Of a stretch of 64,000 nt of DNA, positions 15,081 to 63,559 are shown piece by piece. Every line of letters starts with the position of its first letter. Positions within the stretch are counted from its first letter, which is position 1. Location: contig OZ242355.1 of assembly GCA_965208805.1 (NCBI GenBank), positions 3,744,878-3,808,877 of the forward strand, written 5' to 3'. The stretch is from Acidimicrobiales bacterium. Lineage in GTDB: Bacteria > Actinomycetota > Acidimicrobiia > Acidimicrobiales > Bin134. Made by a program: the position numbers and the translations under genes. The notes under the pieces were generated by a model. It worked only from the letters and a program-made list of their open reading frames with translations. It was not told where the DNA came from and ran no database searches.

Positions 15081-16186
15081 GCGAACAACCAGAGCAAACC
15101 ACGGACTCCAGCGTCTTCTCGCGTTCCGACACCGACGAGGCCTCCGAGGCCGAGCGCACCAAAGGTCTGATCGAGCCGGTCGCGCTGGGGGAGTGGATGG
15201 ACGCCCAGGGCCTGCCCGGCCAGGGCGAGCCCATCACCAGCCGGTTCATTTCCGGCGGCGCATCAAACGAGATTTTCGAGATCTGCCGGGACGAGCACCG
15301 CTGGGCCCTGCGCCGCCCACCCCGCAAGGTTCCTGAAGGCCGCAACGAGACCATGATGCGGGAGTTCCGCATCCTCTCCGCCCTGGCCGACACCGACGTC
15401 CCCCACGCCCGGGCCGCCGGTGGTACCGACGACACCAGCATTATCGGAGCGGCCTTCTACCTCATGGACTTCGTCGACGGCTGGTCGCCCATCAGCGAGC
15501 CCGGATGGCCGGAGCCATTCGGGTCCGACATCAACGCCCGCCCCGGTTTGGCCTACGAGCTGGTCGATGCCATCGCCCGGCTGTCCAAGGTGGATTGGCA
15601 GGCCAATGGCCTTGAGGGCCTCGGCCGCCCCGACGGTTTCCACGAGCGCCAGGTCGACCGCTGGTATGCCCACCTCGAACGCTTCAAGTTCCGAGACATC
15701 CCCGGCCTCGACACTGCCGGTGACTGGCTCCGGGGCCGTACCCCTCGCAGCTATACCCCGGGCATCATGCACGGCGACTACCAGTTCGCCAATGTGATGT
15801 TCCACCACGGCGCCCCCGCCCGGATGGCCGCCATCGTCGACTGGGAGATGGGCACCGTGGGCGACCCGCTGCTGGATTTGGCCTGGGTGGTGATGAACTG
15901 GCCCGAAGACGAAGCCGGCCGCCCCACGGTGGGCTACGTCGACTACGAGGGCTTGCCTTTCCGCGACGACCTGCTGGAGCGCTACGCCACCATGTCGGGT
16001 CGCGACGTCGACGAGATCGACTACTACGTGATCCTGGCCCGCTTCAAGCTGGCCATCGTGCTGGAGGGCGGCTACGCGCGCTTCGTAGCCGGCGGCGCCG
16101 ACAATCCGAGAATGGAAGCCTTCGGCCGCGTCGTCTTAGACCTTGCCCGCGACGCCGCCGCCCTGGCTCAAACCACCACCCTCTAG
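15077..16186 (+). CDS. Phosphotransferase (APH/choline-kinase-like) family protein, the type often found next to acyl-CoA dehydrogenases
   Basis: 369 aa. Catalytic loop MHGDYQFANVMF and IVDWEMGTVGDP. Confidence 0.85.
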   Translation: MSEQPEQTTDSSVFSRSDTDEASEAERTKGLIEPVALGEWMDAQGLPGQGEPITSRFISGGASNEIFEICRDEHRWALRRPPRKVPEGRNETMMREFRILSALADTDVPHARAAGGTDDTSIIGAAFYLMDFVDGWSPISEPGWPEPFGSDINARPGLAYELVDAIARLSKVDWQANGLEGLGRPDGFHERQVDRWYAHLERFKFRDIPGLDTAGDWLRGRTPRSYTPGIMHGDYQFANVMFHHGAPARMAAIVDWEMGTVGDPLLDLAWVVMNWPEDEAGRPTVGYVDYEGLPFRDDLLERYATMSGRDVDEIDYYVILARFKLAIVLEGGYARFVAGGADNPRMEAFGRVVLDLARDAAALAQTTTL

Positions 16187-59000: not shown

Positions 59001-59528
59001 GGCCCGCTGATCACCGGCCCGGACTTCTGCACCGACCACAGCCTGGGCGGGGCCCGCGCCTACGCCCACGACAGCGACGGCGACGAAGTGGCCGACATCT
59101 GCTCGCTGTCCACCACAAAGCGCGAGGCCATCGCCCGCCAGCAGGGTCTGGAGACCTTCATCGTGGCCTTCTCCGCCGCCGAGCAGACCCGCCACGACGA
59201 GATAGCCGAGCTGATCATGCTGACCGGAGTTGCTTCCCCGACAACGGAACAGACTGCACGGCTCGCTGAGCTCAATTCGGAGTACGCCTCTGAGTTCGAG
59301 GAGGCCGACACCGGCACTGCCGACACGTTGGAAGCCGGCGCCGAGGTCACCAAGGCTCAAGCCGAGGTCGACCGTCTCGCCGCCAAGAAGGCCGACGCCG
59401 ACCGCTACTCCAACGCCTTGGCCGCCGCCTGCCGGGCCCTGGGCACCCGGGACTTCGGCGACGCGCCAAGCGCTTTGGCCCGCGACCTGTGCGTCACCGA
59501 CCCGACCACCGGGCGGCCGCTCGGCTAA
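56082..59528 (+). CDS. Giant secreted PKD/cadherin-like repeat protein with two C-terminal Cys-rich modules, the second split by a coiled-coil insert
   Basis: 1148 aa. The more likely start is ATG 56148, giving signal peptide MIAFAVLALVASVLVWAAPSSQAQA. Contains NQAPFADAGSDQTV and NADAGGNRQV PKD-like starts. Modules YFSGNIPGPGYCYGVSLGGPQTYPFDSDKDNVADTCSL and YSGPLITGPDFCTDHSLGGARAYAHDSDGDEVADICSL. Confidence 0.8.
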   Translation: MSMMMLHSVWSDGGSAAARRKVMIAFAVLALVASVLVWAAPSSQAQANQAPFADAGSDQTVNPGTSVTLTGAGSIDVDAGSTGDCGGCEFEWEIETGPYDWISIGEDSDTATDDTATAGAAFEVPSEAFVDKVADSDPQKYEIVVRLTVTDDDGATDTDTVSININQRPVADIQVYAGLRDRTITDGDLGEMGHFPVDAVIDGPGENGNRDNEWDIMEGAWLQLDGSGSTDENPSTGKPSAYQWTRVRPTGALDGYADSQSEASATGQRLEVAEANSAADNVTILDFGDLDDDGDTGTNSDGTVATEDPDDGENLVVYTLPDVMPRQPQTVFYQLTVCDSSPAVAADITTAANCTNGRTGAALIRIVVHDTSSAPEVEIEAALTSSSAARGDAAPQETVGRFTGVENQFIVAAGSTVLLTAEVEDDDQASGHNHRWSGATGVPGTATATVRVPADADDGHTIDGSVTTTDATRISVTTAFQLLVGENTAPTAGGVPANMDSIDNPQSGDPVIYVHKVTDGFQNRKDGSTVTLRGVGNDADGDSIITAWALREGPDHAALNTTIGTWITAIEAIAPDADAATRAGAEAAAAGAALATVGAALQDMQEPDKPLFELSGALTDTVSFDVPNLENGEDAGTILLFSVIDSNGVADAQIVYVYVSADDDIPNADAGGNRQVDPEAFVRLNGSASSDPDVGDKITYSWEYVGATMDPAPDERSPLSADEIDELDGWILKKDATATGGFTYIVKSDGTRADGVADGDFGKLQSTTSAYPYFDAPDLTGFNNIELTFRLKVSDTGGTDLNGDGTIDATAVDDLDETELGFDLNGDGDALDEDVDGVVEDTTNGNDYAMVVITVVNRYFSGNIPGPGYCYGVSLGGPQTYPFDSDKDNVADTCSLNTTRRATVARQNALETLANLNTVEFGNAVNAACNAPGFKQRSYGDDPADLDGDVCETGRVSPPPAEVDAADADVFYSGPLITGPDFCTDHSLGGARAYAHDSDGDEVADICSLSTTKREAIARQQGLETFIVAFSAAEQTRHDEIAELIMLTGVASPTTEQTARLAELNSEYASEFEEADTGTADTLEAGAEVTKAQAEVDRLAAKKADADRYSNALAAACRALGTRDFGDAPSALARDLCVTDPTTGRPLG

Positions 59529-59551
59529 ACCCCACCAACACCAAACCCAAA

Positions 59552-59583
59552 CCGGCCCGGCCCCCCCAAAGGGGCCGGGCCGG
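59552..59583 (+). terminator. Perfect 13-bp GC stem-loop after the giant gene
   Basis: CCGGCCCGGCCCC (59552-59564), loop CCCAAA, GGGGCCGGGCCGG (59571-59583). Confidence 0.6.
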
Positions 59584-59640
59584 CCCGCGTCAGTAGGCCA
59601 CCAGCAGAGGGGAACAGGTCTGTCAACTAGCTTCAACGGC

Positions 59641-59847
59641 GTGAATGGGGCATTTAGGCTTCTGGCCAGACGTTTATTTGTACTCTCAACCGCCTTTGCA
59701 ATGGCCGCGGCACTCCTTTCCCCTGTCCTCTGGCTTCCCGCTGCCTCGGCTCAGAGCGTCGCCGACGTCGAGGCCCGTGATCAGCTGATCGCCAACCAAG
59801 AGAACCTGCTGAACACCTATCGGTGTTTGTTCGGGGTGGACACCTAG
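59641..59847 (+). pseudogene. Signal peptide plus first repeat of a secreted protein, ended by an in-frame TAG
   Basis: GTG 59641 gives VNGAFRLLARRLFVLSTAFAMAAALLSPVLWLPAASA-QS. Then DVEARDQLIANQENLLNTYRCLFGVDT and TAG (59845-59847). The same frame continues as the next ORF. Confidence 0.5.
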
Positions 59848-60888
59848 GTGGTTCCCGGAGGATGTCCCGACCCGGACACAGTCACGCCGGGGGTTTCTCC
59901 GGTGAGTCCCACTCCCCAAGACATCGAGGTGCGAGACGGGCTGATACAAAGCCAGGAAGCCCTCTTGAACGTGTACCGCTGCCGCTTCTACGTCGATACC
60001 CAAATCGTTCCCGGCGGCTGCATCGACGGCGTGCCAGCTCCCACCACTCCAGAACCGGCCTCAACTCCCGAACCCGCAACCACCCCAGAACCGGCCAATA
60101 CCCCTGGGCCCACAACCACTCCCGAACCGGCCCTCATACTGGATGTCACCGCAGGTCGAATGCACTCATGCTCTATAGGTGCCGACCAAATCGTCAGCTG
60201 CTGGGGAGACAACAAGGTCGGTAAAGCCAGTGCTCCGTCGGGAGAGTTCACCTCGGTATCCGCGGGCTGGGAGCACACGTGTGGATTGCGGTCCGACCAG
60301 GCAGCCGTTTGCTGGGGCAGCAATAGCGTTGGGCAGTCGAACGCTCCCCGAGGAGAATTCAGCGCAGTCGACGCCGGCGGCTCGCATTCGTGCGGCATCA
60401 GGTCCTCGGGCAGGGTCGTCTGCTGGGGTGAGAACCTCAGGAGGCAGTCCAACCCTCCGTCGGGGGAATTCACCCACATCTCCGCTGACTTCCATTCGTG
60501 CGGGGTCAGAGTCGACCAGACCATCGCCTGCTGGGGATCGAACAGCGACGGTCAGACTGGCGCTCCGTTTGCCCTGTTCGCTTCCGTTGCGGCCGGCTGG
60601 TCGCACACGTGTGGAGCCACCATTGGGGGCAACATCTACTGCTGGGGGGCAAACGGCGAAGGCCAGACAAACGCGCCAAACCGCGATGAAACCCTCGCGG
60701 AGCTGTTGGCGGTTCGAACCGAGCTGATCTATCGCAGCGACCCCGCCGGGCTGATCGCATTTGTTGACATCGACCGGGCCTACACATTGGGAACGGACAC
60801 TTGGGTGGTGTGGGCTTGCGACACCGAGGCTGGAACCCTCGAGAACGACCCCGTTGAGATGGCTGAGCGCTTCACAAGCTGGGTCTAG
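59848..60888 (+). CDS. RCC1-repeat (beta-propeller) protein
   Basis: 346 aa. Second DIEVRDGLIQSQEALLNVYRCRFYVDTQIVPGGC repeat, a TPEPA linker, then about six HSCG/HTCG...CWG.N..GQ..AP RCC1-like blades. Confidence 0.75.
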   Translation: MVPGGCPDPDTVTPGVSPVSPTPQDIEVRDGLIQSQEALLNVYRCRFYVDTQIVPGGCIDGVPAPTTPEPASTPEPATTPEPANTPGPTTTPEPALILDVTAGRMHSCSIGADQIVSCWGDNKVGKASAPSGEFTSVSAGWEHTCGLRSDQAAVCWGSNSVGQSNAPRGEFSAVDAGGSHSCGIRSSGRVVCWGENLRRQSNPPSGEFTHISADFHSCGVRVDQTIACWGSNSDGQTGAPFALFASVAAGWSHTCGATIGGNIYCWGANGEGQTNAPNRDETLAELLAVRTELIYRSDPAGLIAFVDIDRAYTLGTDTWVVWACDTEAGTLENDPVEMAERFTSWV

Positions 60889-61044
60889 CCCTATTTCTCA
60901 TGGCTGTCGGGCGGCTCATATCGAGTTGAGTTCATCGCCGGTGGAACGGTCAAAGCCGAAAAGGAGCAGGAGTGCTACGACAACATTCGCAATACGCCCT
61001 CTCCGCAAAAGGCCAATGGCGCGGTCATCGTCGTCGACCTGGCG

Positions 61045-61884
61045 ATGATCGACTGCGGAACCGAAGCAGACTGCCGGATCGGTGGAGGGGGTCCCGGCCA
61101 CTGCTTTGACCGCCACCTGGATGAGTGGATTCCCAAAGTGTGTTCTCCTCACTGGCCCGAGAACTTCAGGGAAATCCGGCTTAGCACCTTGGGATTCACT
61201 TCGGTGCCCGGCCACATCCCCGACCCCCCCCCCACCGGATTCGTCATCGGCCATGAGCTGGGCCACGCCCTGAGCTGGCCCCACAGCTACGACCGGCCCG
61301 ACAGGCATTTCGGATCCAACTTGATGGACGTAATGGGCAACGGGCAATCACTGGCCTTTGGCACTCCTGCCATCAACCGGTACGCGGCCAGGTGGATCGC
61401 GCTCGACGAAGTCGCCATCCACCCCCACCCAGTTGACTCCTCCTCGCAACAACAAGAGACCGTCTACGAGCTGTACCCGCTGGGCCAGACGGGCACGCAG
61501 ATGCTGGTGCTTCAAACTGGAGCCAAAGGCGTGTTCTATACCCTGGGAGCTAGGGAGAAGGCAGGATTCGACGGCGATATCCCAGTCGAAGGAGTGGAGG
61601 TGTACTTCATCGACCAGAGCGCCTGGTGCGAGGACCACTTCTGGAATTCTCCGTTCCTGGGCACGGGTTACGGCCCCGGACGTCTCACAGACGTCTATAA
61701 GGAACCTGGCCGAAGAGTGCGGCCAGTTGGATACTTGCTCCCGCACGGCGCGGTCATCACCGGAGATGCCCGGCACGTGTACAGCGTCGGCGAGAGCGCG
61801 GTGATCGGCAACGCCCAAGTCCAGATCACCGGCCGAACCGCCGACGGCGCCGGGTACGTAGTGAAGGTCAAAGCAAGGCCCTAG
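61045..61884 (+). CDS. Metzincin-like zinc metalloprotease domain protein
   Basis: 279 aa. HELGHALSWPH (HExxHxxSxxH), then NLMDVMGNG (possible Met-turn). The frame is open upstream to the TAG at 60886-60888 with no ATG/GTG/TTG before 61045. Confidence 0.6.
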   Translation: MIDCGTEADCRIGGGGPGHCFDRHLDEWIPKVCSPHWPENFREIRLSTLGFTSVPGHIPDPPPTGFVIGHELGHALSWPHSYDRPDRHFGSNLMDVMGNGQSLAFGTPAINRYAARWIALDEVAIHPHPVDSSSQQQETVYELYPLGQTGTQMLVLQTGAKGVFYTLGAREKAGFDGDIPVEGVEVYFIDQSAWCEDHFWNSPFLGTGYGPGRLTDVYKEPGRRVRPVGYLLPHGAVITGDARHVYSVGESAVIGNAQVQITGRTADGAGYVVKVKARP

Positions 61885-61923: not shown

Positions 61924-62012
61924 AAGTGAGAAAATTATTTCCAATTTTCTCACTTATGGACCAAAGTCTCGATGGAATTAAGTGAGAAAATTATTTCCAA
62001 TTTTCTCACTTA
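61924..62012. promoter_or_regulatory. Two copies of a 33-bp AT-rich palindromic element upstream of the Fic gene (putative operators)
   Basis: AAGTGAGAAAATTATTTCCAATTTTCTCACTTA occurs at 61924-61956 and 61980-62012. Each copy is a 13-bp inverted repeat (AAGTGAGAAAATT / AATTTTCTCACTT) around ATTTCC. The arms extend to 15 bp in copy 2. Confidence 0.7.
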
Positions 62013-62034
62013 ATGAGCAAGGTAAAATGAGGTT

Positions 62035-63450
62035 GTGGGCCGCTACACCATCCACCAGATACCAGCGGAAGAAGTCACACCGATATCCAAGAACGCTTCC
62101 CGAAAGCTCGAACATCCCTCTGGGAGCTTCGCCGCCTACCATCCTGATCCGCTCCTGACTCCCGGTTTGGACACTCTTCCCCATTGGGAAAGTGCAGCCC
62201 GTGCCACTGAAGCGGAGATAAAGGAGTTCGAGCAACAGCACGGCGGCTCTGCTTCTCGTATCGGCTGGGTGCTCCAAAGGTCAGAGAGTATTGGTTCAAG
62301 CACCATCGAAGACGTGAACCCCTCTCTGCGGAGAGTGGCTAGGGCCGAGGCCGTCACCCGAAACGGCGGCGATCCCCACGACGATTCTGCCTACGAGGCT
62401 ATCGGGAACATCGCTGCCACCCGTCTCGCCGCCGAGATCGGGGATGAACAAAGGCCGATCACCTTGGATGATCTGTTCTCAATCCACTCCACGTTGATGG
62501 ACCATACGTCCAAGCCCGAAGTGGGCGGGCACCTTCGTCCGGGTTGGGTTCGCGTCGGTGGGGTGCTTGGTGGCTACCCTCCGCCCGCGTATGTCGCCCC
62601 GCCGGCTGAGGAAGTCCCTGAGTTGATGGACGACCTGCTGGAGTACATAAACACCACTAGCCATCATCCGGTAACCGCGGCCGCTGTCGCTCACGTCCAG
62701 TTCGAGTCAATCCACCCGTTCCGCGACGGGAATGGAAGAGCCGGCCGAGCTCTAGTCCAGACCATCCTCCGCAAAGGCGGGATGACGCGCTACACCACCC
62801 CACCGATCAGCGCGGTCCTCGCATTCGATCGCGACGAGTACATCGCTGCCCTCGACGCAACCCGCTTCGAAGGATCGGCAGGGTCACCCGATCAGGTGAA
62901 CTCGCTTGACCGGTGGGTATCGCTCTTTTCCTCCACTGCGGAAGCCTCCTGCGACTATGCAGAGGGACTCATAACACGGATTGACTCGGTTACCCGCAGG
63001 TGGGAAAAGATGCTCAAAAGCCGCAAGGGATCGGCTCCCCGAAAGATCGCTGAGCACTTGCCCGAGATGCCCGTGTTCACCGTCCAGGGCATGGCTGACC
63101 AATTGGGCATTCCTCTGCCAACTGCCTACCGAGCCACAGAACGGCTCACGGCCGCGGGAATAGTCGCGCCGGTTCGAGGCAAACAACGCGGCCGCGACCT
63201 ATTCGAGGCTCCCGACATTCTGGATGTCTTCAAGGCCAGAACAGAACAATCCGAGACGTTCGGCTTGGTCTTAGACGATCTGACCCCGCAGATAAGCGGC
63301 AGGGTTGCCTCAAGGGACGAGAAGGTCGCTGAAGCCATTCGTTTGCGCCGACAAGGCCGAACTCTCCAAGAGATCGGAAATGCGCTGGGAATGTCCATCT
63401 CCTGGGCTCAGATCGTTACCCAGGGTGTCAAGCGCGGAGGACCAGGGTAA
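62035..63450 (+). CDS. fic: Fic/DOC-family protein with C-terminal winged-helix and extra HTH regions
   Basis: 471 aa with a GTG start. Fic motif HPFRDGNGRAGRAL. N-terminal SSTIEDV (inhibitory-helix-like SxxxE). wHTH VQGMADQLGIPLPTAYRATERLTAAGIV. Terminal RQGRTLQEIGNALGMS. Confidence 0.85.
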   Translation: MGRYTIHQIPAEEVTPISKNASRKLEHPSGSFAAYHPDPLLTPGLDTLPHWESAARATEAEIKEFEQQHGGSASRIGWVLQRSESIGSSTIEDVNPSLRRVARAEAVTRNGGDPHDDSAYEAIGNIAATRLAAEIGDEQRPITLDDLFSIHSTLMDHTSKPEVGGHLRPGWVRVGGVLGGYPPPAYVAPPAEEVPELMDDLLEYINTTSHHPVTAAAVAHVQFESIHPFRDGNGRAGRALVQTILRKGGMTRYTTPPISAVLAFDRDEYIAALDATRFEGSAGSPDQVNSLDRWVSLFSSTAEASCDYAEGLITRIDSVTRRWEKMLKSRKGSAPRKIAEHLPEMPVFTVQGMADQLGIPLPTAYRATERLTAAGIVAPVRGKQRGRDLFEAPDILDVFKARTEQSETFGLVLDDLTPQISGRVASRDEKVAEAIRLRRQGRTLQEIGNALGMSISWAQIVTQGVKRGGPG

Positions 63451-63559
63451 GCAGAGCGCACCCTAGACGCGGGCCGAACCCGGCCCCGTCCTGGTGTGGT
63501 CGACGGCAATGGAGCGAGTCGGATTCGACGGTGGGAGTGCTGCTGCTCGTCGGAAAGTA

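Follow-up and report, generated by a model that had tools for sequence, protein, structure and literature searches.

In-frame TAG (amber) codons are known from several settings, of which three are close enough to the present case to serve as references. In ordinary nonsense pseudogenes, single-base changes such as CAG to TAG interrupt a gene whose orthologs remain intact, further lesions are present and gene callers split the remnant into separate open reading frames (ORFs). In TAG-to-Gln recoding (genetic code 15), described in crAss-like, Lak and other phages, TAG is read as Gln, and recoding phages of this type that carry suppressor transfer RNAs (tRNAs) are widespread (bioRxiv 10.1101/2021.08.26.457843). 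In pyrrolysine decoding, an in-frame UAG lies inside a conserved gene and the machinery is encoded by pylT, pylS and pylBCD. Here, we analyse a 64,000-nt stretch of an Acidimicrobiales genome (contig OZ242355.1 of assembly GCA_965208805.1, positions 3,744,878–3,808,877; hereafter the window). The source sequence is a single 3.81-Mb contig with 64% G+C, and the names of its homologs indicate sponge-associated Acidimicrobiia of the genus Candidatus Poriferisocius. One frame of the window (59641–61884, + strand) joins a signal peptide, an RCC1-like propeller and a metalloprotease, and is interrupted by two in-frame TAGs. We assign it to an already known kind of feature, the ordinary nonsense pseudogene: a single secreted RCC1-propeller/metalloprotease gene that was recently pseudogenised in this sponge-symbiont strain, rather than a case of stop-codon recoding. 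We put the probability of this reading at roughly 85%. Like other nonsense pseudogenes, the window gene has stops that derive from Gln/Glu codons, intact orthologs and further lesions, and has been split by gene callers. It differs from them in that its ratio of nonsynonymous to synonymous substitution rates (dN/dS) still looks constrained and in that its only paralog has been struck at the homologous motif codon.

The frame comprises 748 codons, counting both internal TAGs and the terminal stop, and is the ortholog of intact genes encoding 773–821 amino acids (aa). Translation of 59641–61884 gives exactly two internal stops, TAG-1 (59845–59847) and TAG-2 (60886–60888), and a terminal TGA; the ORFs at 59848–60888 and 61045–61884 (the latter denoted ORF 3) lie in a common frame in the ORF list. 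All features of the gene described below are on the + strand and, unless marked as genome positions, are numbered within the window. The translation opens with a GTG start and a signal peptide (59641–59754) ending in ...PAASAQ, which segment 1 alone of the three segments possesses; the equivalent start in the ortholog from genome G007 is an ATG, MNEAPRFLAKQL... Directly after the signal peptide lies a two-repeat N-terminal module (59776–60021), which we denote the surface-tag module. Motif comparison shows that RDxLIxxQExLLNxYRCxFxVDT-Q-[IV]VPGGC occurs in it twice, and this two-Cys repeat module is expanded in the genus, with hundreds of copies across all 40 genomes. In the first motif copy, TAG-1 takes the place of the conserved Gln/Glu codon (GVDT-TAG-VVPGGC), and the second copy, 52 codons on, reads YVDT-CAA-IVPGGC. 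The window protein thus resembles the surface-tag module of other sponge-symbiont Acidimicrobiia in its two-Cys repeat after a signal peptide, but differs in holding an amber at the conserved Gln position.

An RCC1-like propeller region of five blades follows (60100–60690), with CWG motifs at 60199, 60310, 60421, 60529 and 60640. Pfam RCC1_2 matches the middle segment in five stretches (E 3e-37), and the other two segments have no Pfam match. The remainder of the frame (60694–61881) is an M6/metzincin-like metallopeptidase region with a beta-rich domain, predicted to fold as a single unit. TAG-2 falls within this region, and the next ATG, GTG or TTG lies 52 codons to its 3′ side, the longest such gap in a census of in-frame stops in the genome. 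A first-pass annotation, made from the letters of the window alone, had described much of this, and the present analysis bears it out: translation and ORF list agree on one 748-codon frame with only two in-frame TAGs, the census on the 52 codons without a start, the motif comparison on a first TAG placed in a duplicated motif and aligned with CAA (at a spacing of 52 codons), and Pfam RCC1_2 together with a fold search on the succession of signal peptide, RCC1 propeller and metzincin-like protease.

Intact orthologs establish what the frame would encode. Full-length, uninterrupted relatives of the read-through translation are found in P0001 (795 aa, 97% coverage) and P0002 (805 aa, 99% coverage), and more intact single-ORF members of 773–821 aa (P0178, P0179 and P0184/G007, the last of 821 aa) fall in the 90%-identity cluster of the last segment. 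The G007 ortholog is also syntenic, with the order Lhr helicase, PKD-domain gene, RCC1/peptidase gene and Fic gene. At the TAG-1 site the codon is GAG in P0001/L001, L116 and L117, GAA in G007 and CAA in P0002, Glu being the residue of the closest orthologs and Gln that of more distant ones. At the TAG-2 site it is CAG in P0001, P0002, G007, L116 and L117, and the aligned residue is Gln in nearly all. The codons flanking both sites are identical in P0001 and the window, and each amber is one base from the sense codon of close relatives (GAG and CAG, respectively, in P0001). In the 39 other genomes of the genus, the strict motif with its Gln codon was found at the DNA level in about 70 instances, and in none of these genomes was TAG, TAA, TGA or TGG found at the motif Gln position.

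To characterize the C-terminal region, we modelled residues 343–747 with AlphaFold2 (AF2) from a 42-sequence alignment, reading TAG as Gln for folding only. The model forms one confident unit (pLDDT 91.2, pTM 0.91). A Foldseek search of the Protein Data Bank (PDB) placed the zymogen of the M6 peptidase immune inhibitor A2 first (4yu6, E 7.6e-7, TM 0.50), followed by fragilysin, adamalysin/ADAMTS and matrix metalloproteinase (MMP) catalytic domains. The NCBIfam M6 model TIGR03296 matches partially (E 9e-10, 38.9 bits), far short of its 110.8-bit cut-off; the HExxH domain has no match among the Pfam peptidase models, and distant homologs match Pfam Peptidase_M10 or M11. Translation and family alignment identify the zinc-binding motif HELGHALSWPH (HExxHxxxxxH; 61252–61284), in which H196, E197, H200 and H206 are invariant in the family alignment. 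Judged by the predicted structure, the term 'metzincin-like protease' would hold at the level of the fold, without profile-level membership. Compared with InhA-type M6 peptidases, the window protein has the HExxHxxxxxH motif, its best fold match in InhA2 (4yu6) and a partial match to TIGR03296. In contrast to them, it scores below the profile cut-off, has Ser for the Gly of HExxHxxGxxH and carries its peptidase fused to the sponge-symbiont surface-tag module and an RCC1 propeller.

In this model, TAG-2 corresponds to residue 74, a Gln position within the helix formed by residues 62–81. ORF 3, which appears in the public annotation as a protein of 279 aa, opens at an internal Met, model residue 127, 53 residues on, and is missing the initial ~120 residues of the peptidase fold. 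Because the strands and helices of residues 42–123 are absent from it, ORF 3 is predicted to be unable to act as a self-standing enzyme. This bears directly on the view that the locus consists of three separate adjacent genes in one frame, each with its own start, for which one could cite the GTG directly after TAG-1, the ATG that opens ORF 3 and the public call of the 279-aa product. However, the close orthologs are all single ORFs, which already refutes this view; in addition, 52 conserved codons follow TAG-2 before any start, TAG-2 cuts a helix of one compact fold and the signal peptide is on segment 1 only. We regard separate genes as almost certainly wrong.

The window copy carries further damage besides its ambers. 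It has five RCC1_2 repeats, whereas the intact orthologs (P0001, P0002, P0008 and G007) all have seven, which leaves it short of a seven-blade RCC1-like propeller. Comparison with the orthologs places the junction of an in-frame deletion of 75 codons (two blades) at FTHISA/DFHSCG (60469–60504). In the orthologs, copies of the direct repeat TTCACCCAC-RTY-TCCGCW stand at either end of the missing stretch, the signature of recombination between blade repeats. In a nine-sequence alignment, two columns are invariant but for a substitution in the window copy, against one such column for P0001 and none for G007: G584R (61378–61398), at an otherwise invariant family position, and C676G (61657–61680), by which an otherwise invariant family Cys is lost. 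Finally, a poly-C run (61224–61233) 18 nt upstream of HELGH varies in length across readings. As C10 it encodes three Pro in the window, against two in all relatives; the other gene copy of the assembly, at the contig start, has C9 and a shifted frame, and in contig L118 from the Joint Genome Institute (JGI) the run is 3 nt shorter. This length variation reflects either homopolymer error or real slippage.

The genome shows no sign of amber suppression. ARAGORN reports 47 tRNAs, one tRNA-Sec and one transfer-messenger RNA (tmRNA). No tRNA with a CUA anticodon was found by ARAGORN at default and 95% thresholds or by Infernal with RF00005; at the 90% ARAGORN threshold, CTA occurs in 4 of 373 mostly spurious calls, which is about the chance rate, and Infernal matches none of these. 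Each of the 46 Infernal hits coincides with a default ARAGORN call. Two ARAGORN calls without an Infernal match, a 71-nt tRNA-Trp with an oddly placed anticodon (genome 2865890–2865960) and a 97-nt tRNA-Val (genome 3053097–3053193), are probable false positives. The locus resembles those of pyrrolysine decoding in having an in-frame UAG inside a conserved gene, but the genome lacks both a tRNA-Pyl and pylS, for which the best hit reaches 21 bits where the cut-off is 178, and the aligned residue is Gln/Glu, not Lys or Pyl; pyrrolysine decoding is excluded. RF1 is intact (prfA, 468 bits against a cut-off of 423), and TAG terminates 929 of 2,870 gene-like ORFs, about a third. The genes for the Lhr helicase and a nearby PKD-domain protein also terminate in TAG, as do those ending at 16184, 18871, 25498 and 27244, which the first-pass annotation had cited as normal amber terminators. 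Nor is there a recoding structure: the 100 nt from each TAG are not more stably folded than shuffled versions (z +0.74 and +0.37).

A genome-wide comparison with a relative points the same way. Best-frame ORFs from 2.0 Mb of G007 were aligned to the window genome, and stops were recorded where they lay opposite sense codons with both flanks coding. Upstream ORF extensions that overlap a preceding gene were removed by a local codon-score filter, which third-position mismatch and six-frame identity filters failed to do. Within the 1,334 ORFs that aligned (1.47 Mb), coding context surrounds just two in-frame TAGs, both in the pseudogene, and one unrelated TGA. In the reverse direction, one G007 gene carries a pair of ambers that go back to CAG and AAG, so that the genus has a background of double-amber pseudogenes. 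That gene lies at about 1948449–1948575 of G007:C1 (L113–L114) and is the ortholog of the window genome's own 1587769–1589068. Two apparent excesses of TAG were traced to other sources. The excess among in-frame stops flanked by high G+C at third codon positions (GC3; 930 TAG versus 360 TGA) is an artefact of the antisense shadow frame, which is itself high in GC3 and rich in TAG (sense NNC-TAN). A mild TAG excess in a codon-model census consists of cases with a start a few codons after the stop, that is, tightly packed adjacent genes, and this census contains no TAG-specific excess of long interrupted frames. The locus is similar to TAG-to-Gln phage recoding in that its TAGs align with Gln in homologs. 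However, the genome is cellular, with 64% G+C, lacks a tRNA-CUA and uses TAG as a common terminator, and 1 of 1,334 ORFs is affected.

The first-pass annotation had left three options unranked. Recent pseudogenisation stands, on the intact Gln/Glu orthologs, the one-base changes and the other lesions. Programmed readthrough or suppression finds no support in the absence of tRNA-CUA, pylS and hairpin, the intact RF1 and the lack of any other in-frame TAG in 1,334 ORFs. Sequencing error is excluded for TAG-2 by JGI contig L118, and the agreement of the two assembly copies at TAG-1 makes it unlikely there. Of the checks that it had proposed, the alignment with orthologs returned single uninterrupted ORFs with Gln/Glu at both sites, and the genome search for a suppressor tRNA(CUA), made with ARAGORN and Infernal, came back empty.

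Several observations nevertheless weigh against recent pseudogenisation, and we consider them together with the alternatives on which they bear. The first is that TAG-1 is unconfirmed outside the assembly, in two JGI pattern scans for TAG-1 or the TAG of the paralog described below, in look-ups of the exact ORF 1 and ORF 2 products and in a homology search with segment 2. One or both TAGs could accordingly be consensus errors of a long-read metagenome assembly, the gene itself being intact, and the assembly is imperfect here, as the contig end duplicates the contig start and the copies differ in homopolymer lengths. This duplication also provides a comparison: the gene is present twice, with a near-identical second copy at the other contig end (genome 19916–17677, minus strand), and both copies carry both TAGs, with 0 substitutions over 11.6 kb and differences consisting of indels and homopolymer lengths. 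Moreover, contig L118, from another project and two samples, covers gene positions 1168–2244 (1,077 bp) with 0 mismatches, TAG-2 included. Two stop-making substitution errors in one gene, with a third in its paralog, would be a most improbable set of errors, and we hold this explanation to be very unlikely.

The second concerns constraint. Against P0001, dN/dS is 0.15 overall and 0.10 after TAG-2, values that look normal, and with P0002 as outgroup the window branch shows no nonsynonymous excess: it carries 27 nonsynonymous to 42 synonymous changes, and the P0001 branch 29 to 50. The relaxed constraint (raised dN/dS) expected of a pseudogene is not seen in the window copy; therefore, either the inactivation is very recent or the gene is still constrained. 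The third concerns the only paralog with the same peptidase domain in the genome (L012; genome 1184877–1183213, minus strand), which has 554 codons and no RCC1 region. The frame of the paralog, too, is interrupted by a single TAG, which replaces the Gln codon of its second DT-Q-IVPGGC motif; a near-identical intact sister (P0006/L010; dS 0.036) has CAG there. The two family members thus have three stops between them, each of them a TAG, against ~46% expected per stop (p about 0.1); each replaces Gln or Glu; and the same codon of the motif is hit in both genes (p about 0.02–0.04 under a random-nonsense model). It was because of this last coincidence that the genome-wide comparison with a relative was made.

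The simplest reading of the positional match is chance, in a family whose function is dispensable and being lost. The paralog is clearly decaying: compared with its sister it has a dN/dS of 0.33 and four unique radical changes at invariant residues (Y440S, W475S, D491Y and V548L), whereas the sister has none. Two other sources of the match were considered and set aside. A CCAG-to-CTAG methylation hotspot is at odds with observed/expected ratios of 0.62 for CTAG and 1.03 for CCAG, and only TAG-1 lies in a CCWGG-like context. Gene conversion between the paralog motifs is unlikely, since the codons after the TAGs differ and the paralog is one base from its intact sister there.

The same observations could be taken to mean that the ambers undergo programmed or low-level readthrough, for example by a near-cognate tRNA-Gln(CUG), so that full-length protein is exported at a reduced level and the family is down-tuned, not dead. 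Three ambers at Gln/Glu, two of them at the same motif codon, and the normal downstream constraint (dN/dS 0.10) would fit such a scheme, as would the C that follows TAG-2, a weak termination context in Escherichia coli. However, there is no suppressor tRNA, RF1 is intact and the TAGs are followed by no structure; stops are absent from the ~70 motif instances of the 39 related genomes; and two ambers in series would multiply an already low readthrough. The window copy also has the blade deletion, the substitutions at invariant residues and the frameshift-prone poly-C run, and the paralog is in clear decay. On balance, we consider readthrough unlikely.

A more elaborate alternative is that the protease genes, together with a DUF5615 toxin gene, stay silent unless a recoding phage or some other source supplies a TAG-to-Gln suppressor tRNA. 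If true, this would mean that host genes are gated by the alternative genetic code of a phage. The wide distribution of TAG-to-Gln phages with suppressor tRNAs, cited above, would favour it, as would the three ambers at Gln/Glu in two paralogs and a further amber in the core of the PIN-like toxin gene. The ambers are, however, conserved in none of 39 relatives, both protease genes carry other damage and a secreted protease is no obvious infection-triggered effector; we know of no recoded phage for this host. At the DUF5615 amber, the residue of the relative is Gly, in a sole and distant match. We judge amber gating to be extremely unlikely. The DUF5615 (PIN-like toxin) gene itself lies at about genome 2768452–2768757 (+; Pfam E 2.5e-13), with its amber between VLVT and DKDFG of a conserved block, and is probably another young pseudogene.

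Recent pseudogenisation of a single gene is therefore the reading that we carry forward. The ancestral protein combined a signal peptide and the two-repeat surface-tag module with an RCC1-like propeller and a zinc metallopeptidase of M6/metzincin-like type. The ambers go back to two independent single-base substitutions, one in the Glu/Gln codon of the first tag repeat and the other in the Gln codon inside the peptidase fold; recombination between blade repeats removed two of the seven blades, and the poly-C run beside the active-site motif has become unstable. Ribosomes would terminate at TAG-1 through RF1, leaving a 68-residue fragment. No functional exported enzyme is expected, because the downstream ORFs lack a signal peptide and ORF 3 lacks part of the fold.

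Loss of this family extends beyond the window. Other assemblies have versions that were disrupted independently, through frameshifts, a lost motif repeat or large deletions: L014 has a frameshift and is short of one motif repeat, L015 (31x coverage) retains fragments only, and L116 and L117 have frameshifts. The C-terminal domain was found in only 2 of the 24 genus genomes searched. Some of the low-coverage frameshifts in Poriferisocius orthologs may be assembly errors. Both copies of the surface-protease domain are being lost in this strain, and most relatives have a degraded gene or none, which suggests that these sponge symbionts can dispense with the protease function or are under selection against it. 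For annotation, the result means that a locus split in public records into unrelated fragments, such as a 279-aa 'hypothetical protein', is properly labelled as one pseudogene of the RCC1-propeller/M6-like peptidase family. Where recoding is claimed, it can also serve as a worked negative control, from a genome in which UGA is decoded as selenocysteine: three Gln/Glu ambers look suggestive, and comparison of the whole genome with a relative shows local damage.

The surroundings of the gene add several details. An 18-bp GC-rich hairpin (59548–59587, strand not assigned), a likely terminator, lies between the upstream PKD gene, which ends in TAA at 59526–59528, and the pseudogene. Because this likely terminator separates the two, the RCC1/peptidase gene is likely to be its own transcription unit. 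The last ~19 kb of the contig (window 48586–64000 and beyond, genome 3793463–3812606) re-reads the first ~23 kb (genome 1–23449). The end copy matches genome 1–7527 with a single difference (alignment column 5), and beyond this it crosses a repeat of ~818 bp into the reverse complement of 22625–11830. Copies of this repeat, at genome 7528–8345 (+), 16032–15215 (−) and 23443–22626 (−), form the 5′ ends of paralogous genes for PKD proteins. From these alignments, the duplication looks like an untrimmed circular overlap that holds the other orientation of a ~14-kb invertible segment containing the pseudogene; no recombinase gene was found adjoining the apparent segment. Downstream of the pseudogene, the Fic/DOC-HTH gene (61924–63455) is 91% identical to its G007 counterpart and lies in the opposite orientation there, which fits local inversions.

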